Assembly: GCA_004431415.1 (NCBI GenBank) | Contig: QPMI01000143.1 | Location: forward strand, 124,001 to 188,000 | Source of the DNA: Cyanophora paradoxa CCMP329 | Lineage: Eukaryota > Plantae > Glaucophyta | Direction of reading: 5' to 3' | Length of the DNA: 64,000 bases | In this document: one piece after another, positions 7,284 to 57,648 of the stretch | Position numbering within the stretch: position 1 is the first letter of the stretch | Layout of the letters: every line of letters begins with the position of its first letter | The notes under the pieces: generated by a model | What the model was told of the DNA's origin: nothing | What the model saw: the letters and a program-made list of their open reading frames with translations, nothing else | The model's database searches: none | Position numbers and translations under genes: made by a program

Positions 7284-7453
7284 GATTCTCAGTCTTTACC
7301 AATCAGAATTCAACAAATTCTCAGTCTCTCAATCACAATTAATCGAAGTTATATCTTAAATCTTATTTATCGAAGTTATATCATAATCTCGATTAATTAT
7401 ATTTAATCGAAGTTATATCTTTAATCTTATTTATCGAAGTTATATCATAATCT
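7284..7453 (+). repeat. Left terminal inverted repeat of the outer element
   Basis: GATTCTCAGTCTTTACCAATCAGAATTC...CATAATCT is the reverse complement of 32405-32574. Confidence 0.92.
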
Positions 7454-7792
7454 AGGTTTAATCCTCATTGATTCTTTCATATAAAAATTATCTGATAATC
7501 TGAATGAAAATGGAGACAAATACAATTAAGAAGTTATAATAAAAATCTGGAGACAAATTACAAATTATCTGATAATCTGAATAAAAATGGAGACAATTAA
7601 TCGAAGTTATATCTTAAATCTTATTTATCGAAGTTATATCATAATCTCGATTAATTATATTTAATCGAAGTTATATCTTAAATCTTATTTATCGAAGTTA
7701 TATCATAATCTAGGTTTAATCCTCATTGATTCTTTCATATAAAAATTATCTGATAATCTGAATAAAAATGGAGACAAATACAATTAAGAAGT
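7335..7792 (+). repeat. ~200-bp duplication (258-bp offset) containing 8 ATCGAAGTTATATC motifs and a copy of the next ORF's first codons
   Basis: Motif at 7342, 7369, 7406, 7433, 7600, 7627, 7664 and 7691; ATGGAGACAAATACAATTAAGAAGTT at both 7510 and 7768. Confidence 0.88.
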
Positions 7793-8130
7793 TTTACTTT
7801 GATTGTGATTACAATGATCGAAAAATCGCAAAAGAGAAAGGAGCAAAATGGGATTATGAAATGAAACTTTGGTATACAGAAGATGCAAATAGTGATTTAC
7901 TGAAAGAATTCCAAACGATTAATGAAAAAGAAATTAAATACAGAAACGAGAAGATCTACTGCAAAGTTCAATTTAAAGATAATTTCGATGCAAAGTGTAT
8001 GGGACTCAGATGGGATCCTGTAAACAAAGGGTGGTATGTAAAAGGAATTCACCACAAAGATGTATTTCAAAGATTCAAACCAGTTACAAGATTTATTGAA
8101 TCAGATGATGGATCTGATATTAAAGCTTAA
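7768..8130 (+). CDS. Small protein with two DUF5710-like repeats
   Basis: 120 aa; YFDCDYNDRKIAKEKGAKWDYEMKLWY and YCKVQFKDNFDAKCMGLRWDPVNKGWY fit the 'AK..GA.WD...K.WY' pattern. Confidence 0.7.
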   Translation: METNTIKKFYFDCDYNDRKIAKEKGAKWDYEMKLWYTEDANSDLLKEFQTINEKEIKYRNEKIYCKVQFKDNFDAKCMGLRWDPVNKGWYVKGIHHKDVFQRFKPVTRFIESDDGSDIKA

Positions 8131-9270: not shown

Positions 9271-12214
9271 TTAGCGAGTTCTGTAATGCCCAATTGCAAG
9301 GGTATTAACCTTATCCTCACAAAGATACCTCTTGGTATCAAGCGCATTGAATGCCCTCTTTTTCATTTCAAGTGTTGATACCTCGTGGTTTTTTGAACGA
9401 ATTCCCCTTACTGTAACAGGATCCTGCTCTTTCCCCATGACAGTATCATAGAAATGCTTATACTCTAATTTGTTTTTAACTACACATCTCTGGATTCCCT
9501 TCAACCTCTTTACAGTATCTTTCTTTACATCTTCTTCTGTAGCATTCGACTTCTCTTTTAACAAATCCTTCAACCTTTTAGCAATCACTTTTTTCACATC
9601 TTCTTCCAAACCAAGAGCCTTGACATTCAAATCCTTCAAGTACGAATATGCCTTTGGTTTGTATCCTGCAAAGTCAGTAACAATCAAATCACCTGCATCA
9701 TCTTTAAAGACACCTGGAACCTTCTTATTTTTAGGATTGTAACTAACATGTGATGGGCTGTAATCCGATTGATCAAACACATGGGAGTCAGAATTCATGT
9801 CCTTGTATAGATCCTCAGTCTCAATAATGTAATACAGCGAATCTGTGTCAGTCATGAGAAGTTTTGCTTTCGATCCATACTTCTTGCGAATGTAATCGTA
9901 ATGGAACTGATACATGACCAGTTTTGATAAATCAAGGATCGCCTGACCAACATAGATTGGTTTATCGAGAAGAATAGTTCCACGATACATTTCAACTGCT
10001 GTAAGGTTCTCGGTGATGATCTTAACCTTTTTCAGTAGAGGGTTTGCATTCAGTTTCGCCTGCTTCTCTGGGTTGTGGCAGAGTTTGATGTTGCTACGAT
10101 TCCGGACATTCTCCATGGTTTTTCCATACACCGAATTATTCATGAGCTTGTAGAAATCCTTATCGAAATCATTTTGTGCCTGCTTCCTTTTCTCAGTATT
10201 GAAATCAATGTAAGGTTTCAACCAAGCCGATTGTTTGAATTCAATCCCTCGATGGATCTTCTTCACAATCATACCCTTTGATACATAGTATTGCAGATTC
10301 TTGATGTGAAGAACGTAGTTGTGTTTGTTGTTCAGATTGGGTACCAACTTTCGGTTTCCAGGAAGCTTTTCTTCACCAAGCATTTCAAGTTGGGAAGGTG
10401 ATAACATGTCCTCAGTTACTACCATAGATTCAGGTGCTAGTGGGTAATCGCTATGCTCATCATGCAAATGATCTGGATACTCCAAATCAACCTCCAATAA
10501 TGCCCCAGTTTCACCATCAGCATCAAATTTCATGTAATCAAAGTCTTCAACGTTATCGATCCATTCGAAGTCACCAATAGGTAACTTTTGACACATAGCA
10601 AATCCATACAAATTGTTGGCATCCCATGTGATGATGTATTTTATTGGCTTTGTTGGATCAAAGTTCTTCATGTATGGATTGTTAGCCTGAGCATTCCGCG
10701 TAGTTATCATCGATATTCCACCACGAATTCCAAGCTCGAACATACGATACATTTCATCATCATCAATGTTTTCGAGAACAACCTTTGTAAGTTTCAACAT
10801 AGCATTCCAACTGAGATGTGGAGCTGAAATGAAATGGATAGGATCAAGTCCATAATCTTTATAGCATCTCTGTCGGAAATTGTGACCAAACACATCAGCA
10901 AGAAGGAACACATCGGTTTCAAGGTAGATCTTCATGTAATCTCCAAGTGTCTTGCAATCAAATGCATCCCACACCTTCTGACAATGCTTGTAGTCACTGT
11001 CGCTAATTTCACGATCATTAAGCTTTGAGAAGAAAGCCTCTTTGCTGGGAAGTTTAGTTTCGCTGAGTCTATCAAGGCAATCCAAGTAATCATAAGGGAA
11101 GAATCCCTTCCTCATCAGGAGTTCTCTTTGGATCTCCGTAATTGTATGCTTGTCACACCATTCATTGGTGTATTTATAGTTGTCTCTGTGACCGAGATTA
11201 CTAGCAAGTTTGTCAAGACTTTCTTGCATGAAATTCAGGGAATCAACGAATTTGTAGCTGTTAAAGTCGAAACACTTGAACTTCTCGAAATTCTCAGCGA
11301 TACAGCGGATCTCTTTTCCTGGGTCTGCATGCTCACCGAGAGCTTTTAGAATGTAGTGTCCATCATACCCTTTCAGATTGTGGAATATAACAGGAATTTT
11401 AGGGTTAACCCTTCTTCTCAGGTTGCATTTATCGCAGGCAGCCCCAAGATATTTACCTGTGGTATGATCATGATCCCTGACTTTCTTTGTAATGAAAACC
11501 TTACCCTCTTCGCCATATTTAACGAATTGATCCTCGCAAATGTAGCAGCATGTGGCTTCTTTGAAATTCATTTTATCATATCGATCCATCTTTATTGGCT
11601 CGACCTCTCTCACCTTTTCAAGCAACTCAGCCTCCATATTTTTGAGAGTTGTCATGAAATGATTGATTACCTCATCATCGTTGTTTGGATCTTGTTTCTG
11701 GTAGAGGACTTCTCTTAAGATCTTGTCCTTATGCATGATCATGATTTTGTAAGCGCAAGGATGTGCTTTTGGTAAATTTCGGTGTTGATCTCGTTATTAT
11801 TTGAATCGTATTTAACACCTTTCTCATCAACACGAGTCACAACACTTTCAACAGATTTCAGGAGACACTCGAAATCAGCAACTGCAAACATCGGATGCCA
11901 AACTGTTTTGTCTGCATTTCTCTGTGGATCCCACATAATACAGCTTCCTGCTTCAGGCATCACATCAATAGTTGCTGTTGGTCGTTCATAGCATCTGCTT
12001 AGTCTAATGTGATTATCGAGGATCCTTTGACCTGTAAATCCCTTCAAGCAGCATTTACAGAAATACTTCGTTTCCTTGTGTGAGCTTGGAATGAGTCTCG
12101 ATAGACTTGAAATGAAGCCATAATGGGTGTTCTCCCCATCACTCCACATCAAAAGGTCAATGGTCTTGTGCTGCTCTGCTGGGTTCTTGTTCACATGGAT
12201 AGGGAAGACTCGTT
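9271..12214 (-). pseudogene. Protein-primed family B DNA polymerase, C-terminal portion (split by the nested insertion; 1-nt frameshift near 11759)
   Basis: ExoI VADFEC, EndoVII-like CYIC..RDHDH..GAACDKCN, ExoII FHNLKGYDGHY, KGFFPYDY, motif A DANNLYG, motif B KLMNNSVYGK, motif C TDTDS, KGI. Joins ORFs 11739-12194 and 9271-11742. Confidence 0.93.
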
Positions 12215-12618
12215 AGCTCAGCACTGCGCCGTGTCTCCAAAAAAATACCCGCGAAAAAATCAAAAACAAATCAGAAAACAAACCATTCCCAGTAACCCAA
12301 TCTTGAATATCAGTAAATCTCAGTAAGCCTCAGTAAGAAACATTGAATTAATCGAAGTTATATCATAATCTCGATTAATTATATCTTATCGAAGTTATAT
12401 CTTTTTTATGCGCCGTGTCTCCAAAACAATTCCCAAGAAAAACAAACCATTCACAGTAACCCAATTCCAAATCTCACTAAATCTCAGTAAGCCTCAGTAA
12501 CAAAAATCGAATTTATCGAAGTTATATCTTAAATCTTATTTATCGAAGTTATATCATTATCTCGATTAATTATATTTAATCGAAGTTATATCCTTTTTAT
12601 CCGCCGTGTCTCCCATGA
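12215..12618 (+). repeat. Left TIR of the inner element (404 bp)
   Basis: Reverse complement of 25720-26123 with very few mismatches; internal ~190-bp repeat (CGCCGTGTCTCC three times) and 5 ATCGAAGTTATATC motifs. Confidence 0.95.
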
Positions 12619-13064
12619 ATAACTAAGTAAGTTTAGTTAAAACCTCGAAAGAAAAACCTCTCATTTTTTACTGTATTTTTTGAACGATTTTTTACTGTAT
12701 TTGTTACACTAGAAACAACAATAGAAACGACAATAAAAACAATAGAATTTTAATTGTTTTTGAATCGTATATACGTCAATATATCACTGTAATATATATC
12801 ATATATATCATAGGAAATCGATTTATAGTCAAACCTATAACATATCAATTTGTGTATATGTGATATATATTCATATATGACGTCATGATGATGATGTATA
12901 TGTATCTGATATATATGACACACCGGCTTATTCGGGAGATCATGACGATCACGGCGATGTGTATATTGTCATGATGTATATGTATATATGTGTGACGCAA
13001 TCTGATTGGTGTGCTACTTGTTTTGTTGTATCCCCCTTCAACTTCTCCCCAGGTTTATATCACA

Positions 13065-13126
13065 GATAACATCTCAGATAATACCTCAGATAATACCTCA
13101 GATAATACCTCAGATTATATCTCAGA
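13065..13126 (+). repeat. 12-bp minisatellite (GATAATACCTCA) x5
   Basis: Read directly; the same unit recurs at 15492-15527. Confidence 0.9.
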
Positions 13127-13388
13127 CAAGATCCGTGCTCCTGCGGAGCACTAAGTACGGCGAAGCCTCGCGGACGCCCTCGCGGCTGTCACAGTAGGCC
13201 TATAGGGCACTCATCGACTGGCCAGCGAACAGCTTTCTGGCTGGAAGCTGGCTAGCTGACGGCCAGTCCAGCTAGCCCTGGCCGGCTAGAGGAATATTAA
13301 TGTGCTGAGGAAATAAAGGGTGGAGCAGATTGAGAGGAGATTAATTATATAATATTGTTGGGAAGGAGGCCCGCGGCCGGGAGGGGCG

Positions 13389-15170
13389 AGGTTCTCGCGG
13401 CCAGGCGCATGCACAGAGCTTGCGCATCACTTAAACAGAATCTCGAATGCATATAGTATCAATGTGCAGGGCTGCGGATCCGGAGGCGAGGGCGCGCGGA
13501 AAGCTGTGCAGGCCCGTTCAGGATCGAATTTTTGCGTCGGCTGGGTCCTCGCGGCCCGGCGCATACGCAAAGCGTGCGGAAGACTTTACCTACATCTCAA
13601 ATGCTTATGCTATTGTTCCGTGCATGCGCCCCGGCGTGGGCGCGCGGAAAGATGTCCGGGCCTGTGCAGGATCGAATTTTTGCCGTCGGCTGGGTTCTCG
13701 TGCTCTTTCATGTCTTCAAAGCTTGCGAAAAGCTTTAAAAAGATCTCAACTGAATATTGTAGCGATGCGCATGCGCGAGGATGCGAGGGCGCGCGGAAAG
13801 ATGTGCAGGTCCGTGAAGGATCGAATTTTCGGGGTCACCTGGATTCTTGCGCCCTGTCGCGTCCTCGGAGGTCTCGATCGAGATCTGAGGAAGGGCGCCG
13901 GGCTGCTGCTAGCCGTGAAGACTGTCATAAGTTGGACTCAGAAGTTCGTCAGTCACAACTAAATCCGTCATCGAATCGTCAATGGCGCGAGATCGGTGAG
14001 ATCTTTTTTTAATTCAAGATCTTGACAGATCTTGCCAATGTGTTCGCGAAATCTTTTTTGTATTCAGGATCTTGGCAAATCTGAGGAAGGGCGCCGGGCT
14101 GCTGAGACGGGATATAACTATAATTATATACTCGAAGATCGATCTGGGGCAGATCTAATTAATAATTATCTGGCAGTGCAGATCTCGAGGGCGCGCGGAA
14201 AGACGTGCGTGTCCGTGAAGGATCGAATTTTCGGGGCCAGCTGGATTGTCGCGCCCTGTCGCGTCGTCGGAGGTCTCGAAAAGCTTAACGAAGATTTCAA
14301 ATTACTATTGTAGGGATGGGGCCGCGCAGGATCGAATTTTTGCCGCCGGCTGGGTTCACGGTTCTCGTGTTCTTTCGCGTCTTCGAAGCTTGTGGAAGGC
14401 TTAGATAAAATCCCAAATGAATATAGTAGCGAGGATCGAATGTTCGGGGTCGGCTGGGTCCTCGCGGCCTGGCACATCTGTAAAGCGTGCGGAACGCTTC
14501 ATCTACATCTCAGATGCTTATGCTATTGTTCCGCGCATGCGCCGCAGCGTGGGCGCGCGGAAAGATCTCCGGGTCCGTGCAGGATCGAATTTTTGCCGTC
14601 GGTTGGGTTCTCGTGGTCTTTCGCGTCTTCGAAGTTTGTGGAAGGCTTTGATAAAATCTCAAATGAATATACCAGCGATGCGGCCTGCGTGAGGACGCGA
14701 GGGCGCGCGGAAAGTTGTTCAGGTCTGAAGAGGATCGAATTTTCGGGTCGGCTGGGTCCTCGCGGCCGGGCGCATGTGCAAACCGTGTGGAAGGCTTCTT
14801 CTACATCTGAAATGCATATGCTATTGTTCCGCGCATGCGCCGCGGCCTGGGCGCGCGGAAAGATGTCCGGGCTGTCCAGGATCGAATTTTCGCTATCGGG
14901 CACCTTCTTGCGCTGTTCCGGCTCCGGAAAGCGGATATCTGGAGTGCGCAGGTCGTGCTATGTCTATGCGCGCCAGTACGCATCGATTGCGCGCGTCGCG
15001 GGACCGGGCGGGACCGGCCGGATCAAATTTTCGGCCGACTCTTGGCACTGCAGCGTCGAGGGCGCTCGAAATCGAGCTTGCGGCGATGTGCTCGCCCTCG
15101 CGCGTCACTCTTTAGCGTTCTGGGGCGTCCCTGGCGCGATTTCGTCGCGGGACCGGGCGGGACCGGGTCC
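13389..15170. repeat. Degenerate ~149-bp-period GC-rich satellite inside the inner virus
   Basis: GGGCGCGCGGAAAG..GGATCGAATTTT core at 13490, 13638, 13787, 14189, 14551, 14701 and 14849; CGTCGCGGGACCGGGCGGGACCGG at ~14994 and ~15143. Confidence 0.88.
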
Positions 15171-15491
15171 CACCTTCTGACTCGGACTGCAGTTGTCGGA
15201 TCTCAAGTACCGGAATTGATCCAGAGGGAAATTCGATTCCGCGCGACGCCCACGGGGGAGCGGTCGTCTTAGGGGAGCCAGGACGCTAAAAATGGATCTA
15301 GAGAGGTCTGTGGGGGTTCGGGCAGCTGTGTAATGTCCATCAATCGCGTCCGTGTCGAGGCAGAATTAATAATTCTGTGTCGAGGAGCTGCGACACGGAA
15401 ATTATCTGGCAGGGGAGATCTCGAGTGGAAAAAAAGGTTAAAAAAGGAATTTCGCTCGGCGGTTTTTGGGTTTGAGAAAGAGGCTTCGCCT

Positions 15492-15527
15492 GATAATACC
15501 TCAGATTATATCTCAGATAATACCTCA
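15492..15527 (+). repeat. 12-bp minisatellite (GATAATACCTCA) x3
   Basis: Same unit and orientation as 13065-13126. Confidence 0.85.
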
Positions 15528-15590
15528 TATATTAATTTTAAATTTGCTGGCTTCTGATTGGTTCATGCCACAGAGTAGGGACTTTTCATC

Positions 15591-15673
15591 AAATGCGCCA
15601 TAAAATGCGCCATAAAATGCGCCATAAAATGCGCCATTAAATGCGCCATTAAATGCGCCATTAAATGCGCCAT
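15591..15673 (+). repeat. 12-bp minisatellite (AAATGCGCCATW) x7
   Basis: Read directly from the sequence. Confidence 0.93.
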
Positions 15674-15917
15674 GAAAACCCGGGGAATAAACCATAGTAG
15701 GGTATATGATCTCACGGTTCAAGTTTCGCTCACGTTTCACCGAAGTTTCGGTAAATCGATTATCGGCATCTTCAAACGCTTGTATCTCATCACCAGATTA
15801 TGATCTCGCAACGTTCTGCATATCGGTTTGAAGCGCTGTTTAAGCTCTACGCAACTGTGCAATCCCCACAGTATTTCAAGCTACCTTATCATACAATATT
15901 CTTCAGAAATCGACCTT

Positions 15918-16676
15918 TTACACACTGATTGTGGTCATTTCTCGCTGAATCCGAGCCATCTGACTCCTTTTAATTGCTTTTCTCTTCACAAACTTCTTAA
16001 AGCCCTTTATATCATCATCAGTGAGTACTGCTCTATCAGTATAGGTCTTGATATCATAACCTTGCAGGCTAGCTATGACAGTTTGGTAATTATAACCCCA
16101 TAGTCTATGCAATTCCTTGTAGGTCTTCTTATCCAAACCACCATTGTACTCATCAAAGGCGCAATTGAACTCTTTCTCGTTCCCAAGAATATTGAAAAAT
16201 ACAACGAACTCCACATTGCGACGAATGGTAGTAGAAATAGAACACAAACGCTGAACATTAAAGATTACCGAGATTGAATAATGTCTTCCACTCGTTACTA
16301 ATTTAGATAACACAGCCGAATTATGCATATCCAAATTTGAACCTATCATGTCATCGAGTATGATAACTAGGTTATTTCGCTTTTCGTTATTCTCAATTCG
16401 TTTCTTTTGCATACTGATCAATCTCAAAACAATGTTATCATCCCACTCTTCATAGATGTTATCGGGATGGGTGATGTCATTGAATTGTCCAGTAAAAGCT
16501 GTTGAACTAAATATAACGATTTGATCGATCTTGTCACGAAGCTCGTAAAGTAAGTATTTTGTGAACATTGTCTTACCTGTATTGGAGCGACCAACATTCA
16601 AAATTCTTGTCGGGATTCGAACCGTCTTACTCGGATCGAACTCCGGAATATCATCAAGATTTACTGTGTTATCCAT
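15918..16676 (-). CDS. A32-like (FtsK/HerA) genome-packaging ATPase, inner element
   Basis: Walker A GRSNTGKT, Walker B LVIILDD, GRHYSISVIFNVQ, IRRN. Confidence 0.93.
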   Translation of the reverse strand: MDNTVNLDDIPEFDPSKTVRIPTRILNVGRSNTGKTMFTKYLLYELRDKIDQIVIFSSTAFTGQFNDITHPDNIYEEWDDNIVLRLISMQKKRIENNEKRNNLVIILDDMIGSNLDMHNSAVLSKLVTSGRHYSISVIFNVQRLCSISTTIRRNVEFVVFFNILGNEKEFNCAFDEYNGGLDKKTYKELHRLWGYNYQTVIASLQGYDIKTYTDRAVLTDDDIKGFKKFVKRKAIKRSQMARIQREMTTISV

Positions 16677-16756
16677 TACAGTAATAAGATAAAAAACAAA
16701 ATAAAGTACACACCTACAAATAATTGCGCTTCCTACACTAACAAAAGAAAAGAACT

Positions 16757-17983
16757 TTAGAAGTTCGAGACTTTCAGGGTAGAGATGTTGTAGCCATTAA
16801 GTACCATAACATTGTGTCGGAGGGCATAGATATCAACCTGAACAGGAGCGGCATCAGTGCATCCGGAAACAGTGAGATCCATGTAACTCGAGCTGCTGTT
16901 GAAGAAATCCTGGTAACCCATAACCGAGTTCCGAAGCGAATCTTTTCCAGACTTGGAAAGAACAATTCCGTAAACATTTCCAGACTCGAATCCGTACGTG
17001 GTATTGCCCACAGTAACACCCTTGTAGTGAGAAGGAATGTGATTGACAGCAGAGAGGAAACCGGAAATGGGTTTGTTAGATATATCCAGGGAGCGATTGT
17101 TGTGGAAGATCTGGAACTGATCAATCTTAACAGCAGATTCATGACCGCAGAAATCCGAGTGAGTGTAGGTGTTAAGTTTGTTCACCTCTCGAACAGTCAT
17201 CAGAATCGAGTGAACCAGACCAGAAACATTAGCGAGTGTAACCTCAACAGATTCACCAGCATCAGCGGTTTTGAGCGCTCGGGTCTTCTTGTGAATGACC
17301 TCTGTGATCGGGATGCGAATGCCACCTTGTTCGTTCGCCATTTTAAGGAGTGTCTCAGCCTCAGCCGAAGCAATGTTTACGAATTGGCAGATCAGAGAGC
17401 AATCCGCAAAGGTTACAGATCCACCAGCCGGAACTTGGACAATCGCAGCATCACGGAAATCAACCTCGATTGTTGGCATATCGGCTAGCGTACATAATGG
17501 GAAATAAGCTTCTTCCCAGAAAGCAGCGGGGATTCTAACGATGTATTCCATTGCTTCATCTGTGCTTTCACGATCTGTCTCTTTGAAGTAACCGAGAGAA
17601 GCATACATGCTGCTCATGGTAGCGTGATCATTATCGACCAGGGCGTTTACAGTGATCCAATCACCAGGGATAATATACTTGAAACCACCATGAACGAAAC
17701 GGACCTCATTAATAAAAGAAGAACCACCATTGGGGAGGGTGCAGGCTACACCACCACCAGTGGCAATCTTGAAATAGAGCGAAACACCAGCAAGGAGTTG
17801 CTTGCGAGGTAGATCAAAGTAAGCGGTATTCTTGAAGCCAAAAGTGTTGCCCCGGGGACGAACTTGCTCGAGGAATGGTTTGTATTTGGGGTTGGTTCCG
17901 ATTTGGAGACCAGGGGAAAGATAAATTTGATCGGAACCGGGAGTTTCGAGGAGTTCCTTCAGGGTAGTTCCAGTGAGTGCCAT
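16757..17983 (-). CDS. Double jelly-roll major capsid protein, inner element
   Basis: 408 aa next to ATPase and penton; the N-terminal pattern FGF..AYFDLPRKQLLAGVSLYF..GGSSFINEVRFVHGG..IPGDWI resembles NCLDV/PLV MCP; YFPLC and C-terminal IYALRHNVM. Confidence 0.8.
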   Translation of the reverse strand: MALTGTTLKELLETPGSDQIYLSPGLQIGTNPKYKPFLEQVRPRGNTFGFKNTAYFDLPRKQLLAGVSLYFKIATGGGVACTLPNGGSSFINEVRFVHGGFKYIIPGDWITVNALVDNDHATMSSMYASLGYFKETDRESTDEAMEYIVRIPAAFWEEAYFPLCTLADMPTIEVDFRDAAIVQVPAGGSVTFADCSLICQFVNIASAEAETLLKMANEQGGIRIPITEVIHKKTRALKTADAGESVEVTLANVSGLVHSILMTVREVNKLNTYTHSDFCGHESAVKIDQFQIFHNNRSLDISNKPISGFLSAVNHIPSHYKGVTVGNTTYGFESGNVYGIVLSKSGKDSLRNSVMGYQDFFNSSSSYMDLTVSGCTDAAPVQVDIYALRHNVMVLNGYNISTLKVSNF

Positions 17984-18035
17984 CTCTTATGTTTAAAATA
18001 CCAAAAGAAATTTTTAAAATGCTTTATTAAACAGA
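17984..18035. promoter_or_regulatory. Putative bidirectional promoter between divergent MCP and penton genes
   Basis: 52-bp AT-rich spacer between head-to-head ATGs; identical in the outer element (29753-29804). Confidence 0.5.
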
Positions 18036-18923
18036 ATGACGCGTTACTATCTCAATATTGATTCCAGGGACCGATCGGATGGAACCCCAACTAATTTCAC
18101 ATACAGACTCCCTTATGCGATCCAAAAGGTCAGAGCCTGTCGAGTAACGAACTTTGAGATGTTTCACAATCTTTACAACCTCTCTGAAGTAGGAACCCTC
18201 ACCACACAAACACTCGATAATGCTGGGAACCCAAAGAATAGAAACAACGAAGTCCTCCGAGGTGCATATACACCGGATTCACTGGTGAATTATCTGATCG
18301 CTCGCATTGGATCCCAGCCCTATAATCAAGCGGGTGGCGGAACTTACACTCGCCATTTCTATGTAACCTATGATCCCACAACATTGCTTCTAAGGTTCAT
18401 GTGTGAGGTTCCATTCTCAATCACTATGAACACTCAACTCTTAGCCAATTTCTGTGGTTTTGAAAATGCTAACACACTGTACCAATCGAGTCCTCTATCA
18501 TCTAATGTCACAGTTGGAGCCTTTACTTATGCTCACTACATTGATAGTGAAATGCCATTAGATCTACTATTTAATTCCTATTTGCTTCTTCATGTTGATC
18601 CACTGAAAGGAAGATATGTGAGCAATAACAAACGAGATAACAATGCTATCGCGAAAATTGAGATTGACCAAACGGTTGGCAGTCTATTAAAATATGATTC
18701 ATCGAATAATTCCATGATCGTTCACGAGCAGAATGGCTTGGTTGAGGTTGAGACTCTAGATGTGAGACTTTCTTACTGGAATGGAGCCACAGCAGACATT
18801 ACTACCGACTGGTCGATGACTCTTGAACTGATTACTGAAGATGATAAAGATCTGACGAAAAAAGCATTGAAGAATGTCATAAAAGAGTTGGAGGGACTCT
18901 ACCTGCCGTTCTCACGGTCATAG
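18036..18923 (+). CDS. Minor capsid (penton) protein, inner element
   Basis: N-terminal LNIDSRDR..PTNFTYRLP..IQKV..LYN and C-terminal LDVRLSYWNG..DWSMTLEL, typical of PLV/NCLDV single jelly-roll pentons. Confidence 0.82.
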   Translation: MTRYYLNIDSRDRSDGTPTNFTYRLPYAIQKVRACRVTNFEMFHNLYNLSEVGTLTTQTLDNAGNPKNRNNEVLRGAYTPDSLVNYLIARIGSQPYNQAGGGTYTRHFYVTYDPTTLLLRFMCEVPFSITMNTQLLANFCGFENANTLYQSSPLSSNVTVGAFTYAHYIDSEMPLDLLFNSYLLLHVDPLKGRYVSNNKRDNNAIAKIEIDQTVGSLLKYDSSNNSMIVHEQNGLVEVETLDVRLSYWNGATADITTDWSMTLELITEDDKDLTKKALKNVIKELEGLYLPFSRS

Positions 18924-18959
18924 GAAATACTGTAGAATAAATTTGTTTCAATATTACAA

Positions 18960-19721
18960 ATGGCTCGCAAGACTCAACCCAAGAATTTCTTAGCCAAACC
19001 AGCCGCTGAAGCGGATGTTGGCAATGGTGAGAATGGAAGGAACTGGTATAAGAAATCGAAAGGACTCGCTGCATACGGAACTGGTGACCTCGAAAAGGAA
19101 GTCCATAAAGAACGAAACCAATTCACCCAAGCCACTACGAAAAACAGTAATGATGATAATGCCCTTGTTGACCAAGTCCCACTGAACCGCATGCCCGGAG
19201 CCAAACGAGGAATCAAGAAAGGACAGTTCAAATCATCCACAAAGGACAAGGTTGCCTCATCATCGACACTGCTGAAACTGCTTGATGGTGGTGAGCGACT
19301 CTACTCAACCTATTCCGAGAAAGACCATCGCAACCGCTACTTTATTCGTTCAACCACTGGTGGACTGAAATCTGTAACATATCAGTATGCTAAGAGTCTT
19401 GTTGATGGTATTGCAGCAGAGACCAAAAACGAAAACAAGATCAAGGAACAGCCAATCACAAAGGAAAAGGTTGAGAAGAAACCAGAAGTAACCCATGAAG
19501 TTATTCCCGAACCTGTTCATGTGGCAAAAGACTCACCTACAGAATTGATTGCAAAGACCATTGAGTATCAAGACTCCAACAAAACGGATTTGCCGGTTCT
19601 CAATAAGTCGATCCTTCGGGTTGCCACTTCGCAGGCTGATCCAGTCAACTCGATTCCAAATGCTGCCCCAATGGTCTCTGGATTCGCCAAGCTTGGTATA
19701 AGACCCGGTTATCGCCGTTAA
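18960..19721 (+). CDS. Lys-rich hypothetical protein (possible virion core protein)
   Basis: 253-aa ORF with a homolog at 28043-28816; function inferred from composition and position only. Confidence 0.7.
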   Translation: MARKTQPKNFLAKPAAEADVGNGENGRNWYKKSKGLAAYGTGDLEKEVHKERNQFTQATTKNSNDDNALVDQVPLNRMPGAKRGIKKGQFKSSTKDKVASSSTLLKLLDGGERLYSTYSEKDHRNRYFIRSTTGGLKSVTYQYAKSLVDGIAAETKNENKIKEQPITKEKVEKKPEVTHEVIPEPVHVAKDSPTELIAKTIEYQDSNKTDLPVLNKSILRVATSQADPVNSIPNAAPMVSGFAKLGIRPGYRR

Positions 19722-19754
19722 GGATCAATCTGAATAATATAATTTCTCAAACAT

Positions 19755-20010
19755 TGTTAGCGCTACGTAACCAATCCTATCCCGTAGGCTCAAAACTTCT
19801 TCATTTTTATGGAGGCGTTGTAGAGCGAAGTGAAATATCCATAGGTAAATCACTTTAATCACCTGTTCTACCGGGTTCAGTGGTAGAAACTTGCAGCCGA
19901 CAAGTGAACCTTCTGGGTATCGGTGGCTTTATCATTTTTCCAGCATCTTCTTTCGTACTGGATGCTCTGCAATCGGGACCAAAATTTGACAGGAGTTTAT
20001 TCGCTATATA
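19755..20010 (+). ncRNA. Candidate structured RNA or cis-element
   Basis: Run of hairpins with nested closing stems; conserved in the outer element (27755-28005) with changes concentrated in loops. Confidence 0.45.
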
Positions 20011-20070
20011 CAGACAGAAAAACTACTTAAAGATTTCTTAACATATATTAAGAGAGTAGAAAAGGACAAC

Positions 20071-20328
20071 ATGCCAATCAGTGAGGCTCAGAAGCGTGCT
20101 ACTTATCGTTATCGTAAAACTGAAAAAGGTCAGGAATATTTGAAAAAGTACAATGCCAGATTTGCAAAGCAAATGCGTGACTTATACCATACTGATGAGT
20201 GTTACAGAGCCATGAAGATCGTTGAGAGTTCCCAGCGTCTCTATGCTTCCAATGCAGTCTGCTTTGTGAAGTATCTCTATGGTGTCCCGTATTCTAACCG
20301 TGGTCGCAAATCGAAATATCTCTGTTAA
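20071..20328 (+). CDS. Small basic helical protein (SEAQKRA..Y type)
   Basis: 85 aa; the second copy at 27437-27694 differs by 2 conservative residues plus synonymous changes. Confidence 0.8.
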   Translation: MPISEAQKRATYRYRKTEKGQEYLKKYNARFAKQMRDLYHTDECYRAMKIVESSQRLYASNAVCFVKYLYGVPYSNRGRKSKYLC

Positions 20329-20333
20329 TCGTT

Positions 20334-20360
20334 TTTCTCAGCGCGATCTGCTCTGAGAAA
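20334..20360 (+). terminator. Hairpin just downstream of the 85-aa ORF stop (possible 3'-end signal)
   Basis: TTTCTCAG..CTGAGAAA stem, conserved in the outer copy (~27405-27431). Confidence 0.35.
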
Positions 20361-20569
20361 CCCGTGGGAAACGCGCTGGAACCACAAATATAATCATTCT
20401 GTTATTTTTAGAGTTCGATGATCGAGCCAACCCTTTGTTATTTTTATGAATGCCCTCGACTAAATTTATTTTGTTGGAGACTTTTGGTTTTGTCGGTAAA
20501 ATTTGACGCGAGTATAAAAGTATTTAAAGAAAACTTTTGTAGGTATATATTAATAGAGTGAACAAAGAA

Positions 20570-23500
20570 ATGCCTCGACCAAGTAATCGAATTTCGAAAA
20601 ATTTGCAGGATGAGATTCTTGGCTACTACATGCAAGCAAAAGTAGAAGACAAATTGACCCGAGAGCAGGATATCTATTTCTTGAGAGAATTTACTTTCAA
20701 AGCAATTAGAATTCCAAAGTTGATTGATATCAGAGATACACTGAGAGGTATCGTAGAGCCTCGTTTGTATCGCAAGCAGGAGAAGAAGGAGAAGAGGGCT
20801 GAGAGAGCCGCTAAGAATGTTGAGAAGCAAAACAAGAAAGCGGAGCAAGCGAGAGAGCGGAAGCGCTTGACTCCTTTCCAGCAGATGATTGCTAACCTCC
20901 GTGAGTTTGTTGAAAACTCACCTGGAAACATGGTCACCCTGAATGTGAGACTCTTCCGTGAGTTGCAAGAGGGAGAACAAGCCCCTGCAAATGCAAACAG
21001 GGTCACTGAGAATGGTGTGACCTACATTGAATCGAAGAGGCTTCGGAACAATCGCCCCTTTGGTATCCAGTGTACCAAGGCAGCTTTTCTGAATGCTCTC
21101 GGTCTGGTTCAATCCACCTTCAATACGTTCCCATGTGTTGAGGGGACTGTCATTGCTGAATTTATTGCAGCAGTTATTGAGTTTAACTCGACCAATCAAG
21201 ATTTCCGCTACCTAAAACTAATTGAGCAAGATACCTACCCCGATATTATGACAATTGAAAGAGTCATCACGACAGATAATGAAGAATACATCCCAAGAAA
21301 TGAACAAGTCCTCAGAGACAATACAAACGCTCCAATGATTATTTCGAATTTCATTAAAAACGAAGGGAACCCCCAAGCCACCACATTCAAGGAAATGTTC
21401 TTGAAAGGTGATTCATTCAAGGTTGGGAAGTGTGTTTTCGATGTCCTCATCAAATGGTTTGGAGGAGCGTTTGAGAAGGCTAAGACCAAAGGGAAATACA
21501 AGCGAATCGATTGGTCTTACAACGGACTCTTTAAGATGGTGAATGGGCGAGACCCTGTTGAAGGAGATGATTGGGGCATTTCTTTCAAGTCCATTTCGGA
21601 GAAGGTTCTTGACCCACTGCGCCTAGGCATGGTTACAATTGGAAAGGACGACAGAACCCCTGTCCCTGAACTGACTTTCCTGCCCAAGACCAGGAACACA
21701 CACTTGACCCCTTCTGTTGCATATGTGAAGATTGAGAATGGTCACATGTATTTGTTAAATCACAATATTAAGGCTCTCACACAGTCCTTCAATGGCTCCA
21801 AGCCAAAAGATACCAATGTTCCACTCAGTTCTCGTTACAAGATTATAAAGCAAAGAAGGTTCAAGGAGTTTGCCACAAATCCCGATGACATTCTGAGAAT
21901 TGTCAGGTCTGACAATCCAAAGAACCAATCGAGCATTCGAATCTGCTATGGTGGTTCACTGGATGAACTACTCAGAGAGTTCATTGTGGTGCATAATTAT
22001 CAGGTCCAACCTGGGTTCTCCCAAATCGGAAAGGCAACCCATATTCGTTTCACTATTGACGATAAGGATGTTGTCGTGACCCCACCTGGTAACGATACAG
22101 ATGTGGAAACAGCTTTCGAGATTAGCTTCAAGAATGCTGAGTACAGAGATAAATTCGAGAAACTAAATCTGGATATGTATAGGTCTCTAATCAACACTTC
22201 CAACAAGAGTACTTACAATGAGCAAACCATAAATGCATTCAAGAATGGAGTGCAGACTGCCCTTCGTGGTCTCTTTGATGTGGATGAGGAGACCTTTGAT
22301 GAAATTCGCTATAACACAGATATTTACGAGTTCGATATGTGCAAAGCATACCCTTACATTGTAGCCTTGATGATCAAATTCGTTCCTGTTCTCAGCAAGT
22401 TCGATGTCTTCAAGAGTGTGACAATCACAGATGCAGAGCAAATCGAGGAATACAGCTTCTATTACGTGAAACTGGACGACAAATACTTTTTCAAAGCCAA
22501 AGACAAGAACGGAAAGGAGTACGAAGCAAACACCTACAACAGATACAAGAGGATGATCATTGATTCCAAGTACAATGTCGTTCCTGGTTTGGTTCTCAAA
22601 AAGCATTTCGAGGATTTCAAGGATGACATCTCCATCAAAGCGGTTCTGCGACCTTACAAACTCATTCCCAACCTTGCAGGCAACACAGTTGCTCGAATCT
22701 TAGATAGCGACCTCGATCCTGTTGATAAGAAGCAGATCTTGGTGAGTGCAATTGGGCAAACTGGAAAGCAACGAAATAGCAGAGTGAAAACCACCATTTT
22801 CCACAACAGAGACGATGCGATCGAGTTCCAGAAACAGAACGGAGGGGAGGTTAAAATTTACCTCTTTGGTGAGACTCTTGCCACTTATGAGGAGACAGAG
22901 TTCGTTCTGTGTGAGGAAGAGATGACCGAACCCCATATCTACTATGTCAATCAGGTAGCAGAAAAGCAGCTCATTGATGGCTTCATGCCATTGTACACTA
23001 CCCTCTTGTCAATTATGAGGATGTGTATGTATGAGAAGTGTGTCGAACTCGCTAAACAGCAGATCCGACCACTCGCTTTGAACACCGATTGTGTTTATGG
23101 GATCGCTTATGAACCCATTGCCCCAGTGTCATTCGATCGCAATGCCTTTGAGAATATTGGAAAATTCAGTGTGAAATGCTGCCCCAATTTTTCTAAAAAG
23201 TTTTCAGGTGAGAAGAAAGACCTCGAGGCAAAACGAATTCGTTACGGAAAGTTTGAGAGAGCGACTGACTTTGTGAAAATCGAGAACTACAGTTATACCA
23301 AACACTCTGTGGTTGATGAGTATGACACAACCGCGATTTGTGATTTGCTGGCTACACAAAAACGATGGGTTCTTCTCGGATCAGTTCCAGGAGTTGGAAA
23401 GACTCACATGACAGTTGAATATGGGAAGCGTTTCAAAAATCCCCTCTATATTGTTCCGACCAACAAGCGAGTGAAGGAAATGAAAGAGCAAGGATTGAAA

Positions 23501-24657
23501 AATGTGAAGACAATCTATGATGCCCTTCATCTCAAAATCGATGAGTCGAACATGGATGAAATCGTAGGAGGGAATGCATCTGGTTTGGTAGAATTTGATT
23601 GCATTGTTATTGATGAGATCTGTCAGTTTAAGATTGGAGAACTGGCAGCCCTGGACCACATCATGAATGAGCAGTTCCCAGATAAGGTATACATTGCCAC
23701 AGGTGACCCGTATCAGAACCCACCCATTCAGGATATGAGTGTTGATCAAGATGAGTATTACCTTGATATCCTCCATCGCCTGTTCCCCAACGAATTGTTA
23801 CTCCAAGTGAACAAGCGCCATGAGACTGAGGAAGATCGCAGAAAGGTTGAGCAAATTCGAATTGATTTATTCGAGAAAGGTTTGAGTGTAAGTGAGGTCC
23901 TAGCAAAGTACGGGTTCAAGGTTGTGGACGAATTGGCAAAGACAGATAAAGGCATTGTGTATACAAACCGCAAGGGTGCAGAGGTGAACCTAGCCCTTCA
24001 CAAAATGAACTACGGGATAATGTTTCCATTTATGCTGGCGGGATCAAAGTTGTTGCAAAGACTCGTATTGCAAAGGGTGGGAAGATAGTTCATAATGGAT
24101 TTGTCTACAAGATTGTCAAGCTCTCAAAGGACAGTTTCATTATTGCTGACATTGCCAACAAGAAGGATGAGATTGTTCTCAGCAGGGATGCAGTCAAACA
24201 TTTCGCCCTGGCTTACGCAAACACCTGCCATGTTGTTCAAGGTGATACGATTCGCTGCAAAGGGAACAGGGTAGTCGTGTTCGAAACTGGGGCGCCATTT
24301 GTTTCAAAGAAGTGGCTATATGTTGCTCTCACTCGAACCACAAGGCTGGATGATGTTGTTATTTACCATGATAATTTCGAAATGGCTCACTGGAAAGTGT
24401 GGAAAAGAGAGAATAACGAGAAGATTTCGACTTACAAGGATCAGGACCGAGCAGCAAACAGACAATTCGATGAGCATGATTACATCACATGGGATTGGAT
24501 CAAGCAGCGATATGGGAAGCAGTATGGGCATTGCCTGCGATGCTACAATGCCATGGACTTTGAAGATATTTCGGTAGATCGAATTAATAATGCTGTGGCT
24601 CACATTACCAAAAATTGTTTCCTCTCTCATATTAAGTGTAACTGTGCCGCCCAATAA
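20570..24657 (+). CDS. Divergent PolB - SF1 helicase - HNH-like fusion (~1360 aa; 1-nt frameshift at 24014-24016)
   Basis: PolB-like motifs FDMCKAYP (A), KQILVSAIG (B) and LNTDCVY (C); helicase GSVPGVGKT, IVIDE, TGDPYQNPP and QVNKRH; after the frameshift LAYANTCHVVQG and WLYVALTR; C-terminal CLRC..SVDRINN..H..NC..SHIKCN. Likely start ATG at 20570. Confidence 0.82.
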
Positions 24658-25718
24658 TGGATAGTGTATTATCATTCAAAAAGTATAGGCAGAAACTGAT
24701 TAATGAAAAAGTGAGTTTTGATGAAAAAGAGTTGAAAAAGAAGTTCAAAAACTCAGAACTCCAGCAAATTTACAAGAAACCAAGGAAACCCAAATCGTTT
24801 CTTCGCATAGTGGCAAAGCCTAGATCGTTTCAAATCGATATAACATATTTGAGAGGGTTTCAGACTGCCAACAATGGCATTTTCAAAATGCTTAGTTTCG
24901 TAGACATACTTAGTCGCAAAGGATTTGTTTATCCTTTTAAAAACAGCAGTGAGATCCCGAGCATTTTAAATAGGTTCAAGCAAGAAGCAGGCAAAGTTAA
25001 TGCTCTCTCTGGGGATAATGAGTTTTCCCAGGCAGTATACCGAAATTGGTGCAGTGAACATGGTGTAATGCTATACACAGATGTGGCAAAGGATGACCAC
25101 ATCACAGTAGGAGATAAACTGGGGATAATTGATAGGTTCACTAGGACTTTCAAACAGTATCTCAGAAAATCGATGACAGCAAAGGGAACCACGAAATGGA
25201 TCGATCTACTTAGTGATGTAATTGACTTGTATAATAGCAGTCCCCATTCTGCATTGAAAAATGACTCTCCAAATGCAGTGTATACAAATGAAGATAAACA
25301 GTTATTTATTTACATGAGGGATACTGTTCACAACAATCGTGTAAAGGAGGCTGATACTAATCAAGTGAAACCAGGAGACACAGTTCGAGTTTTGCAACCA
25401 AAGGGATTGTTTGAAAAAGAAGGTGCGCAATTCAGTCAGAAGGTCTACACTGTTGCAAAGGCTGATAGGAATCGTTTCAAAGTGCTTGAAGATAATGATG
25501 GTGAGGAAACAAAAGAAGTGAAGAGGAGATTTAAGAAACAAGAATTGCAAAAGGTGAATAAAGATGATATCATTAAGATACCATCACAAAAACGGATTCA
25601 GCAGGTTAATAAAACGAATAAAGTGAATCGATTGGTAGCAAAAGAAGGCATAAAACCCAATCGGAGTAATGTAATTCGGAGGAGATACAATTTGAGAAGT
25701 GGTTTAACGAAACGCTAA
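24657..25718 (+). CDS. Retroviral-like (rve) integrase, inner element
   Basis: 353 aa; FQIDITY, LSGDNEF, GIIDRFTRTFK, YNSSPHSAL; start overlaps the upstream stop (TAATG). Confidence 0.9.
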   Translation: MDSVLSFKKYRQKLINEKVSFDEKELKKKFKNSELQQIYKKPRKPKSFLRIVAKPRSFQIDITYLRGFQTANNGIFKMLSFVDILSRKGFVYPFKNSSEIPSILNRFKQEAGKVNALSGDNEFSQAVYRNWCSEHGVMLYTDVAKDDHITVGDKLGIIDRFTRTFKQYLRKSMTAKGTTKWIDLLSDVIDLYNSSPHSALKNDSPNAVYTNEDKQLFIYMRDTVHNNRVKEADTNQVKPGDTVRVLQPKGLFEKEGAQFSQKVYTVAKADRNRFKVLEDNDGEETKEVKRRFKKQELQKVNKDDIIKIPSQKRIQQVNKTNKVNRLVAKEGIKPNRSNVIRRRYNLRSGLTKR

Positions 25719-25719
25719 A

Positions 25720-26123
25720 TCATGGGAGACACGGCGGATGAAAAGGATATAACTTCGATTAAATATAATTAATCGAGATTATGATATAACTTCGATAAAT
25801 AAGATTTAAGATATAACTTCGATTAATTCGATTTTTGTTACTGAGGCTTACTGAGATTTAGTGAGATTTGGAATTGGGTTACTGTGAATGGTTTGTTTTT
25901 CTTGGGAATTGTTTTGGAGACACGGCGCATAAAAAAGATATAACTTCGATAAGATATAATTAATCGAGATTATGATATAACTTCGATTAATTCAATGTTT
26001 CTTACTGAGGCTTACTGAGATTTACTGATATTCAAGATTGGGTTACTGGGAATGGTTTGTTTTCTGATTTGTTTTTGATTTTTTCGCGGGTATTTTTTTG
26101 GAGACACGGCGCAGTGCTGAGCT
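25720..26123 (-). repeat. Right TIR of the inner element
   Basis: Reverse complement of 12215-12618; begins just after the integrase stop codon. Confidence 0.95.
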
Positions 26124-27195
26124 CTCGTTTCTTGTTATCAAGGAAGTAGACATTGATAGGTCTACCAATCATCTTCGAAGCTAGATCGTAAACCCTAGAG
26201 TCATTCTTGACTGGGAACTCAAAGCGACTCCAATCGAATTCCTTATCCCACTTATTGTATCGTTTCAATTCAGATCTGTGGTTTCGAATGACATCATTGT
26301 GATGCAAGCCAATCTTAACAGCATGTCGGAAACATTCTTGGTCTTCATTCTTAGGATTGATAACCGCCTTTCTCTTTTCAATCTCTTCTGGAAGAGGGAT
26401 GTAAGAACTTCCTGTCAGAGGTGTGTAAGATAGAATTTGTAGGGTTACTTCAAGAATATTGTGAATCTCTGCGTACTCGATGGCTGTCATGATTTCATGC
26501 AGATCATCCACAGCTTGCCTGACGATATCCGTTAGGTCATTTGCTGGAAGAGCTAGGTAAAAATGCATTGAGCTTGGGTATCTGGTAGCATATTGGTACT
26601 CTCCTGTCCACCTTCCATTTTGCTTCTCCTTGTATTTGTAATTCGCCTTCACTTTGAACTGGAACTTAATTCCATTGTGTCTGTCCAAAGCCTCTTGAAG
26701 TCTTCTATGGAGATCATCCCATCCTATCTTCTCAGTGATAAACCGATGGATTGTGTTAATTAGGTTTTTCTTAGCGTTTTTCCATGTAAGCTCCTCGACT
26801 AGGTGATTCATGGCATTCATTACCTGAACCTGGTTGGCTTCCTGCTTTGACTTCCATTTTTGAACCCTCTCTTGCTTCTTGGACTTCTTCTGCTGATTTC
26901 TTTTGTATTTCTGCACTTCTTTGGTCTTTGCTTGCCGTTTGGCAACATTCTTAGCGGCTCTCTCAGCCCTCTTCTCCTTCTTCTCCTGCTTGCGATACAA
27001 ACGAGGTTCTACAATACCTCTCAGTGTATCTCTGATATCAATCAACTTCGGAATTCTAATTGCTTTGAAAGTGAATTCTCTCAAGAAATAGATATCCTGC
27101 TCTCGGGTTAATTTGTCTTCTACTTTTGCTTGCATGTAGTAGCCAAGAATCTCATCCTGCAAATTCTTCGAAATTCGATTACTTGGTCGAGGCAT
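26124..27195 (-). pseudogene. N-terminal portion of the outer pPolB (terminal-protein and protease-like region)
   Basis: YTPLTGSSYIPLP..KAVINPKNEDQECF..FEFPV..INVY is the Polinton pPolB N-terminal signature; it joins in frame to 12208 when the insertion and one TSD are removed. Confidence 0.9.
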
Positions 27196-27436: not shown

Positions 27437-27694
27437 TTAACAGAGATATTTCGATTTGCGACCACGGTTAGAATACGGGACACCATAGAGATACTTCACA
27501 AAGCAGACTGCATTGGAAGCATAGAGACGCTGGGAACTCTCAACGATTCTCATGGCTCTGTAACACTCATCAGTATGGTATAAATCACGCATTTGCTTCG
27601 CGAATTTCGCATTATACTTTTTTAAATATTCCTGACCTTTTTCAGTTTTACGATAACGGTAAGTAGCACGCTTCTGAGCCTCACTGATTGGCAT
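27437..27694 (-). CDS. Small basic helical protein, outer copy
   Basis: Near-identical to 20071-20328. Confidence 0.8.
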   Translation of the reverse strand: MPISEAQKRATYRYRKTEKGQEYLKKYNAKFAKQMRDLYHTDECYRAMRIVESSQRLYASNAVCFVKYLYGVPYSNRGRKSKYLC

Positions 27695-32260: not shown

Positions 32261-32404
32261 TTACAGATCGATATGGTTAATTTAAAAACAGTCGTCATTT
32301 TTTTTGGATCGGTCAAAATTTGATTACGTTTAAAATTGATATAACTTCAATTGAATATAACTAATCGAGATATTGATATAACTTCGATTAAATATAATTA
32401 ATCG

Positions 32405-32574
32405 AGATTATGATATAACTTCGATAAATAAGATTAAAGATATAACTTCGATTAAATATAATTAATCGAGATTATGATATAACTTCGATAAATAAGATTT
32501 AAGATATAACTTCGATTAATTGTGATTGAGAGACTGAGAATTTGTTGAATTCTGATTGGTAAAGACTGAGAATC
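32405..32574 (-). repeat. Right terminal inverted repeat of the outer element
   Basis: Reverse complement of 7284-7453; abrupt return to GC-rich DNA after ~32580. Confidence 0.92.
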
Positions 32575-37559: not shown

Positions 37560-39193
37560 CAAGCTTAGGGCTGCAGCGCAGCTGGAGGAGATTTCGACTT
37601 TAGGATCGTACGTATCTCCCTCCATTCCTGGTTCCGGGTCGGCTTCCGGCGTTCTGATTGCGATTGTTGCAATTGATCATGACGTCAGATCGATTTCAGA
37701 ACGCCGCGCCGGATACGACCCCGCGCGCGTGATTGAGGTCGGGGATGAGCGGGCGCGCCAGATCCATCGCGGGGCCGGCGTACGCGTCGGCCTCGCTCCT
37801 CTTCGGCGCTCCCGTGTCGCTGGAGGTCGCGGTCGCCCACATCCGCGCGGCGGCGCGAGCGGCCGCTGCCGCCGCTGTCGCGGACGGAGACGCTTCGACG
37901 TCAGAGATGGACAACGTTAACGGGCGAATCACGTCCTCCGCACAGGCGCGCGACATGGCCGGAGCCCGCAACGCGAGCCGCAAATCCTCCGAGGATTCCA
38001 TCGACGCATCGGACGCGGGAGAAGGTGCACGTGCGCGCCCTCTCGCTTTAAATTTAGATCTCGCTCGTTGTTGAGCTCGGCCGGCGTCGGTGCCGAGGGC
38101 GCGCGTGCCGTTCGCCGGATCCGGATGTCTTTCAATGTAGAGACCTATAGCTATAGGCCTGCAGCTGCGTCTTCCGCTTTGACGTGACGGTCGACGGTCC
38201 CGCGCGCAGGCGCGGGGGGCTGGCTCGCCCTCAACATCGACGAGGCGGAGACCGTCCTCGCCGCTGCCGCCGCCGCCGCGGCCGTCCCCGCCTTCCTCGG
38301 GCCCCTCACCCTCTGGGAGGTGCGCCCGCGTACGCGTGGCCATGGATAGAATTAATGGCATTTTTCCGTCTCTGCAGTTTTCAATTTCAGCTTAATATTT
38401 GGATCTAGCAGCTTGCTGATTTCGAATTCTAGATCTAGATCTGTTTCTTTTCTTTTTGGATGCAGCTGCAGTCGACGTCCCGCGGATTATATTTATACGT
38501 CTGCAAGCTGTTGCTGCCTTGTTTCCTGGACCGTATTGCCTTGCTGTGCCGACGTCGACTCTTTCTCCGCTTCTTTCTCTATTCTTTTACGATGTGCTCG
38601 ATGCGATCTCTTCTCTTCTCCCTTCATCGCTATCCGCTGTTCTCCGCTTTTCTTCAGCTGCTTCCCCCGACTTTGGGTCCGTCAGCCCATTCCTCGTCCG
38701 ACAATATCCGCTTCATTCTACTCGCGGGTCTGCACTTTCCCGCGATTCTTAACATGCAGTCCACGTTTCCCGATCTGACAGCTCTAGATATCTCAGTCTG
38801 GCACGTCGACGTCGAAGATTTTACTCTTTTCTATTCTTTTCTCCTTTCCCCGTCGGATGGCCGTGGTGCATGCTCAAGCTCAGTCTGGCCGTCGACGTCA
38901 AAGGTTGCGCAGCTTCCCCGCCCGCGGCCCGCCCCGGCCGCGGGCCGCGCCAGGCTCTATTTAGCTGCGTGCAGCGTTCTCTCGGTTTCTTTTTCCTTTT
39001 TCTGAGGCCACCATGGGCCAATCCATTCCATCGTACCTCGCGATCGGTACTGGTGCTTCTCGGTCCTCCTGAGAACAACGTTTCGTGTGATACATCGAGA
39101 TCTGTGGCTAGATGGGCCTGAGCTTCGGTTTTGATCATCGGATGCTCCAAACGCTGTTGAGTTGCGCGCGCGCAGGAATGCGAGGGAGGCGGC

Positions 39194-39224
<31 letters not shown>

Positions 39225-57500: not shown

Positions 57501-57648
57501 GAAGCTGAAATCCGCGGCCTTCCGAGTTCATTAATATTATCAGATATCATAGTATAAGCTTGAAAGGTCGAGCCCGGAAATTCGACTGTCTAACAACATC
57601 TCAATGCCGCAGTGCCGCGACAAGCTAAAGCGGCCCGTAGTCTGGGCT

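Follow-up and report, generated by a model that had tools for sequence, protein, structure and literature searches.

The window, by which we mean the whole 64,000-nucleotide stretch of Cyanophora paradoxa CCMP329 DNA that was analyzed (contig QPMI01000143.1, positions 124,001 to 188,000), contains an AT-rich island amid GC-rich eukaryotic DNA in which host CpG is not depleted. This island harbors a gene for a long chain in which a DNA polymerase of family B that is primed by protein (pPolB) is joined to a superfamily 1 (SF1) helicase. Its 1172-residue open reading frame (ORF) at 20570-24088 on the forward strand is followed by an overlapping stop-free frame at 23950-24657; the intact 1314-residue relative P0001 aligns with both pieces in order, and reading both in one frame gives, by arithmetic, a product of 1362 residues. 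From sequence comparison and structure models, we consider the gene very probably to be a Tlr1-like pPolB-S1H fusion (S1H denoting the SF1 helicase) of an integrated polinton-like virus (PLV). An earlier note, made from the sequence letters, had read the same succession of domains; the domain map proves right, and the architecture is already described and common.

The two pieces are separated by a single frame break. Contigs from all six DNA sequencing runs that cover this position (X8, X14, X12, X1, X2 and X3; run X17, the seventh, does not reach it) carry a one-base indel relative to the window near 24013 that places both pieces in one frame, and in each run these contigs have the full listed depth. 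Two of the six runs are possible sources of the window and hence not independent of it. The earlier note had likewise seen a full SF1 motif series once one G was restored at 24014-24016. The break is not a feature of the family but arose either as an error of assembly or as a lesion found in the window's copy alone; because contigs drop rare variants, these two origins look alike at the break. The same loss of rare variants leaves a real, if minor, chance that the window's copy alone is a pseudogene with a genuine break, its sister copies in the genome being intact. In X1 and X2, bubbles of variants near 23665-23992 reveal that several versions coexist, and three single sites within the gene or close to it separate the window from the contigs of the runs; however, the break sits in a short homopolymer, the remainder of the gene is stop-free, and the window's form occurs in no listed contig of the six runs, the two possible sources included.

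Among its relatives the protein is ordinary. At E<=0.001 an exhaustive protein search against clusters at 50% identity matched 511 of them, 270 of which also pass 1e-10, whereas a word-indexed protein search recovered a single relative among 7930 candidates. Of 150 listed clusters, the 118 with lengths of 1100-1700 residues were kept and 32 shorter ones dropped; alignment A3 holds 117 of the 118. Six catalytic residues spread along the chain (C288, H392, D589, D840, K944 and E1016) are all present together in 116 of 117 relatives, at identities of 19-28%. The best viral match was H6WBE3 (E 4.6e-24 over 1091 columns), and phage records gave no match. When viral contigs were scanned, P0008 found one locus, while neither P0002 nor the fusion and capsid proteins of the window found any. 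L001, the contig of one relative, also encodes an A32 ATPase; two further proteins from it, of 439 and 373 residues, do not resemble the capsid protein and integrase of the window.

The domain order was examined in an AlphaFold model of residues 1-1147 built with 54 relatives (mean pLDDT, the predicted local distance difference test, 80.2). Behind a helical leader lies a domain at the position of the terminal protein (Table 1), for which the fold matches among 48,161 chains were weak, one being residues 429-524 of polymerase kappa at Z 2.8. We take this segment of polymerase kappa to be its PAD domain, as a lead only. The PAD domain is the best match of PRD1-like terminal proteins, whose linking residues are placed in the loop before the last strand of the domain (passages of PMC11161782). 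The corresponding loop here reads Thr222-Tyr223-Pro224, and a Ser or Tyr occupies the pair 222/223 in 47 of the 54 relatives, the highest count among all pairs in 100-260 (median 7). We predict Thr222/Tyr223 as the candidate linking, or priming, residue. No terminal protein structure appeared among the listed fold matches of the residue 100-420 model, an absence that excludes nothing; the viral fold search with these residues gave no match at E<=0.001, and their Atlas matches were to unnamed clusters alone (scores 0.88-0.91).

The best matches of the residue 100-420 model among the same chains were OTU domains (Z 6.6, root-mean-square deviation (rmsd) 3.7, 108 residues aligned), and the top fold-match rows for residues 257-399 were nearly all of the OTU family. 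The candidate Cys/His pair pointed out earlier is present as described and falls in this fold: Cys288 (in GKCVF at 286) is kept in 117 of 118 relatives and His392 (in ENGHMY at 389) in all 118. At the exonuclease position, too, the earlier observation holds, as residues 425-585 lack any conserved exonuclease carboxylate pattern; the best Asp column reaches 47/117, with Ser in this protein. Because the match to phi29 polymerase begins at model residue 430, corresponding to phi29 residue 6 (a range of the alignment and not a pairing of residues), part of the exonuclease fold may persist, and in the model residues 430-560 are a possible dead exonuclease remnant. When profiles were compared with those of polinton pPolBs, the OTU region alone scored above shuffled columns across a real stretch; the palm, as positive control, failed as well, so the comparison is uninformative about an exonuclease remnant or a terminal protein.

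Whether residues ~570-860 model as a family B palm has a clear answer. Phi29 polymerase occupies Foldseek ranks 1-9 (best E 5.2e-8), followed by Pif1, RecD2 and Dda, and residues 430-884 of the model align with phi29 polymerase residues 6-550 at Z 15.2 (rmsd 4.3, 357 aligned). The model's best polymerase matches are protein-primed enzymes, which bears on the presence of TPR1 and TPR2 at the level of fold rather than of residue-by-residue superposition. The polymerase motifs stand at FDMCKAYP (588, with Asp589), KQILVSAIG (721-729) and NTDC (838-841, with Asp840). Both catalytic aspartates, that of motif A and the second of motif C, were rightly described as retained: Asp589 is kept in 117 of 118 relatives and Asp840, like Lys721, in all 118, with Lys592 present in 107. 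The motifs had also been called altered, and so they are at the sites given, but mostly in the manner of the family. Position 838, Asn here, is never Asp among the 118 relatives (commonest letters K73 N22 R12 H8 A1), and the motif B Tyr is present in 1 of 117. Only the replacement of the motif B Asn by Val is a minority trait, that Asn being found in 107/118 and changed in 11/117.

The helicase was recognized by Pfam (AAA_19, E 1.5e-7, above its cut-off, with UvrD_C_2 also matched), by profiles (RecD2, Dda and Pif1) and by fold, residues 915-1147 of the model matching T4 Dda at Z 15.6 (rmsd 3.8, 214 aligned), in full agreement with the earlier assignment to SF1. Walker A lies at 937-945, the DE box at 1015-1016 and GDPYQ at 1045, while the second frame holds motifs V (nucleotide 24214) and VI (24313) and, further on, the HNH (24529-24642). 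Helicases of the SF1B class have 5'-3' direction. The HNH-like motif proposed at the C-terminus is in place: by aligned count, 101 of the 118 relatives retain its His and Asn, and both are absent in 10; a strict HNH pattern matches 63 of 118, which is an undercount. The third zinc site is His in this protein and Cys in 104 of the 118, and the Pfam scan gave no HNH family match. Judged by its sequence, the domain is most likely a captured homing endonuclease.

These features place the protein among the Tlr1-like helicases, or pPolB-S1H fusions, of PLVs, Tlr1 and transpovirons, which have the same size and domain order (terminal-protein position, vOTU, palm, SF1 helicase, HNH), likewise lack exonuclease motifs and have lost the first Asp of motif C; their elements likewise possess inverted ends with ATPase and capsid genes, the rve integrase being as in Tlr1. 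What sets this protein apart from them is its motif B Val, shared by a sub-lineage (11/117), the His at one HNH zinc site, and a stretch of ~130 residues at the exonuclease position that may keep part of that fold; Tlr1 itself has GIY-YIG in place of HNH. Fusion of palm and SF1 helicase in PLVs, with the exonuclease missing and a C-terminal HNH, is described in PMC5499653, where the palm was taken for inactive. Passages of PMC11161782 added the vOTU and terminal-protein-position domains, predicted an active polymerase, and give the order as terminal protein-vOTU-palm-S1H, ending in an HNH or GIY-YIG domain at the C-terminus, the exonuclease and the first motif C Asp both being absent. The statement in the earlier note that Polinton pPolBs are normally separate from any helicase is not supported, given these two descriptions and the 511 matching clusters; that note had itself named a common and characterised architecture as grounds against its reading, and such is the architecture here. 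Palm-only pPolB elements are reported in 97 of 7041 eukaryote genomes, many with an SF1 helicase fused (PMC13215967), and we count 'PRT-pPolB' groups 2-3, as presented in that source, with the Tlr1-like helicase/pPolB-S1H kind.

Canonical polinton pPolBs (terminal protein-vOTU-exonuclease-palm), of which the outer element described below has one, share with the fusion a leader, the terminal-protein position, the OTU protease, a protein-primed palm and an adjoining rve integrase. In contrast, the fusion lacks the exonuclease residues and DTDS, has altered motifs A-C, and carries helicase and HNH on the same chain. The SF1-pPolB fusion of the OmPLV elements of Oxyrrhis marina is also a single chain in an integrated PLV; there, however, the helicase comes at the N-terminus and a complete exonuclease is present, whereas here the helicase is C-terminal, and the OmPLV fusion is said to have arisen independently (sections of PMC12721341).

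By analogy with its family, the product would in all likelihood copy linear viral DNA by itself, as a non-proofreading, protein-primed replicase; a single-chain replisome is the published prediction for pPolB-S1H proteins (PMC11161782, in part). Following that source, after excision the terminal-protein domain would accept the first nucleotide on a hydroxyl residue, for which Thr222/Tyr223 is the candidate, and from there the palm (Asp589, Asp840 and Lys721) would carry on synthesis. Unwinding in front of the polymerase would fall to the SF1B helicase, copying would proceed without proofreading, and the terminal protein would be released through cleavage by the OTU protease (Cys288, His392). 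Several points weigh against this account: the terminal-protein fold is matched weakly in the model (Z 2.8), the OTU match, at Z 6.6, is of middling strength on the fold-search tool's own scale, motif B is without its Tyr and in this protein also without its Asn, and we found no published assay of any pPolB-S1H protein in a search mostly without subscription literature.

The same family membership would be compatible with a palm that is catalytically dead and structural, the helicase being at work while a polymerase of the host or of a helper virus makes the DNA, which was the 2016 reading (in the relevant parts of PMC5499653). The loss of the first motif C Asp and the departures in motif B, the Asn of which is replaced in this sub-lineage, would fit such a loss of function, as would the failure of the literature search to turn up an activity assay; nevertheless, the near-invariance of Asp589, Asp840 and Lys721 in distant relatives, together with the existence of active family B polymerases lacking the same Asp (PMC11161782, in part), leads us to regard a dead palm as unlikely. 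A reading of the two frames as distinct genes, or as linked through programmed ribosomal frameshifting, is suggested by their 139-base overlap in the window and is highly improbable, the frame being open in all six DNA runs, which refutes it for the majority copy, the relatives being single chains and the break cutting through one helicase.

Table 1. Positions of the fusion gene, its predicted domains and the two elements in the window.
Feature	Position	Strand	Remark
pPolB-S1H fusion gene (probable Tlr1-like helicase)	20570-24657	+	one frame change near 24013 in window
Basic, helical N-terminal leader (residues 1-99)	20570-20866	+	helices in model
Alpha/beta domain at terminal-protein position (residues 100-241)	20867-21292	+	secondary structure of models
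OTU-like cysteine protease (residues 257-399), Cys288 and His392	21338-21766	+	fold and conservation
Alpha/beta region at exonuclease position (residues 430-560)	21857-22249	+	without conserved catalytic acids
Protein-primed family B polymerase domain (residues 561-884), Asp589/Lys721/Asp840	22250-23221	+	Foldseek, conservation
SF1B helicase (Dda/RecD2/Pif1-like)	23309-24336	+	motifs I-IV before break, V-VI after
C-terminal zinc-binding HNH-type nuclease domain (predicted)	24529-24642	+	motif and conservation, from sequence alone
Inner polinton-like virus, 13.9 kb	12215-26123		terminal inverted repeats ~400 bases; carries fusion gene
A32-type packaging ATPase	15918-16676	-	Pox_A32 E 1.1e-15
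Major capsid protein (likely)	16757-17983	-	Atlas score 0.98
Candidate minor capsid protein	18036-18923	+	position and size; no family match
rve-type integrase gene	24657-25718	+	start overlaps fusion-gene stop; weak Pfam rve_3/rve, below cut-off
Outer sister element, opposite orientation, interrupted by inner element	7284-32574		inverted arms 7284-7458 / 32400-32574, 99%
Outer pPolB, polinton-type, C-terminal part with exonuclease motifs I-III	9271-12208	-	DNA_pol_B_2 E 6.3e-18
Outer pPolB, N-terminal part, cut off by insertion	26124-27195	-	open frame to junction; empty-site contigs join 12208

The fusion gene belongs to an inner element that we identify as a PLV from its inverted ends, its A32 ATPase, a capsid protein likely from Atlas matches alone, and a likely integrase. 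Its inverted arms (12205-12618 and 25720-26133) are 98% alike, and a 6-base target duplication (12209-12214 and 26124-26129) flanks it. An empty-site joint linking 12208 to 26124 occurs in the contigs of three of three runs (X8, X14 and X12), loose contig ends matching the empty site were found in X1 and X3, and no contig bridging an inner/outer junction was present among the contigs listed. The integrase is taken to be of the rve type from its weak Pfam matches, and that type fits the 6-base duplication. Of the Atlas clusters matched by the capsid candidate, a minority (10-18%) carry Capsid_N or Capsid_NCLDV; Pfam gave no capsid-type match.

A GC-rich stretch (0.56) at 13130-15480 within this element consists of ~149-base repeats flanked by 12-base tandem repeats; it is very deep in all three runs and is skipped in other copies (joints 12966-15740 and 13125-15763), making it a candidate insertion or origin-like repeat. 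Run X17, which we guess to be RNA, yielded a very deep 483-base contig that matches the window only at the HNH-integrase junction (24607-24661) and then diverges, which suggests a third related element. In another X17 contig the inner element's end (26124) has a different flank, marking another insertion site.

The inner element lies inside an outer sister element, at whose ends (7284 and 32574) no target duplication was seen. The polymerase gene of this sister is the one that the insertion divides; its product has the DTDS form of motif C and matches polinton-type polymerases at 41-48%. A further frame change lies near 11740 in this gene, and the outer copy differs by ~3-4% from the runs' contigs (20/666 and 28/749 bases), so that it seems older or decayed. 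Residues 50-108 of the reading frame 9271-11742 (-) form an inserted domain that resembles Endonuclease VII (E 5.3e-5, just at the cut-off), a Pfam family also found on many relatives. Only one of the outer element's ends encodes a DUF5710 protein (7768-8130, +, E 3.4e-15).

Inner and outer elements share a collinear block of 4979 bases at 85.5%, and their proteins are alike to differing degrees: 97% for the capsid protein, 81% for the ATPase, 72% for the candidate minor capsid protein and 62% for the integrase. The leader of the fusion is 89% identical over 99 residues to that of the outer polymerase. From ~19270 onward DNA identity is 92-98% per 250-base block and then drops near 20830 (26940 in the outer copy), a breakpoint that falls inside the polymerase gene, ~86 codons in. 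Two replicases, behind one leader, thus occur within one capsid lineage.

It is tempting to speculate that replicases were replaced between siblings through a crossover inside the polymerase gene. The promoter region and an 86-residue leader would have remained common to both, the integrase and outermost ends would have been swapped along with the replicase, and the HNH domain might have driven the exchange by cutting the sibling; the fusion-bearing sibling would also have inserted into the other's polymerase and knocked it out. We regard this scenario as doubtful. Nothing in the locus but the swap between siblings and the nesting merits a second look. Nesting and replicase swaps between sister elements are already in print: replicase replacement and HNH-helicase fusions are reported in passages of PMC12220804, tandem genomes whose capsid genes are the same but whose replicases differ, for which homing endonucleases were raised as a mechanism, in part of bioRxiv 10.64898/2026.10.13.758929, and PLVs nested in each other in part of bioRxiv 10.64898/2026.07.28.741278. 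As portrayed there, the tandem and nested polisuvirus genomes likewise combine near-identical sister capsid genes with different replicases, and place viruses inside viruses. Those pairs are of PolA and AEP where named, whereas here pPolB stands against pPolB-S1H, identity ends within the polymerase gene once the common leader is passed, and it is the sister's polymerase gene that the insertion strikes.

AT-rich repeats recur at the ends of both elements (7320-7800, 12300-12620, 25720-26040 and 32330-32540; 96-100% over 81-86 bases), while the outermost bases of the inner and outer ends differ; the repeats are possibly an origin or packaging signal that both elements share, with tips specific to each integrase. 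A near-identical basic ORF of 85 residues (20071-20328, +, and 27437-27694, -) lies immediately upstream of the two polymerase genes and matches no Pfam family. Beyond the two elements, a host gene at 166-1272 (-) has short introns and a weak HAT match, and presumably resembles UTP6. GC-rich, host-like repeats of several kb at 52400-64000 are direct, with ~7.4-kb spacing, and inverted relative to 37700-40400. Sixteen other ORFs, together with the N-terminal piece of the outer pPolB, gave no Pfam family above its cut-off.

Taken together, the importance of the locus is modest and lies in its value as test material, the activity of pPolB-S1H palms being so far a prediction. C. paradoxa carries an apparently intact fusion next to a sibling of the proofreading type that has its leader and capsid in common, and in priming, fidelity and strand displacement the pair offers a natural comparison. 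With a candidate linking residue at hand, the claim of protein priming becomes directly testable.

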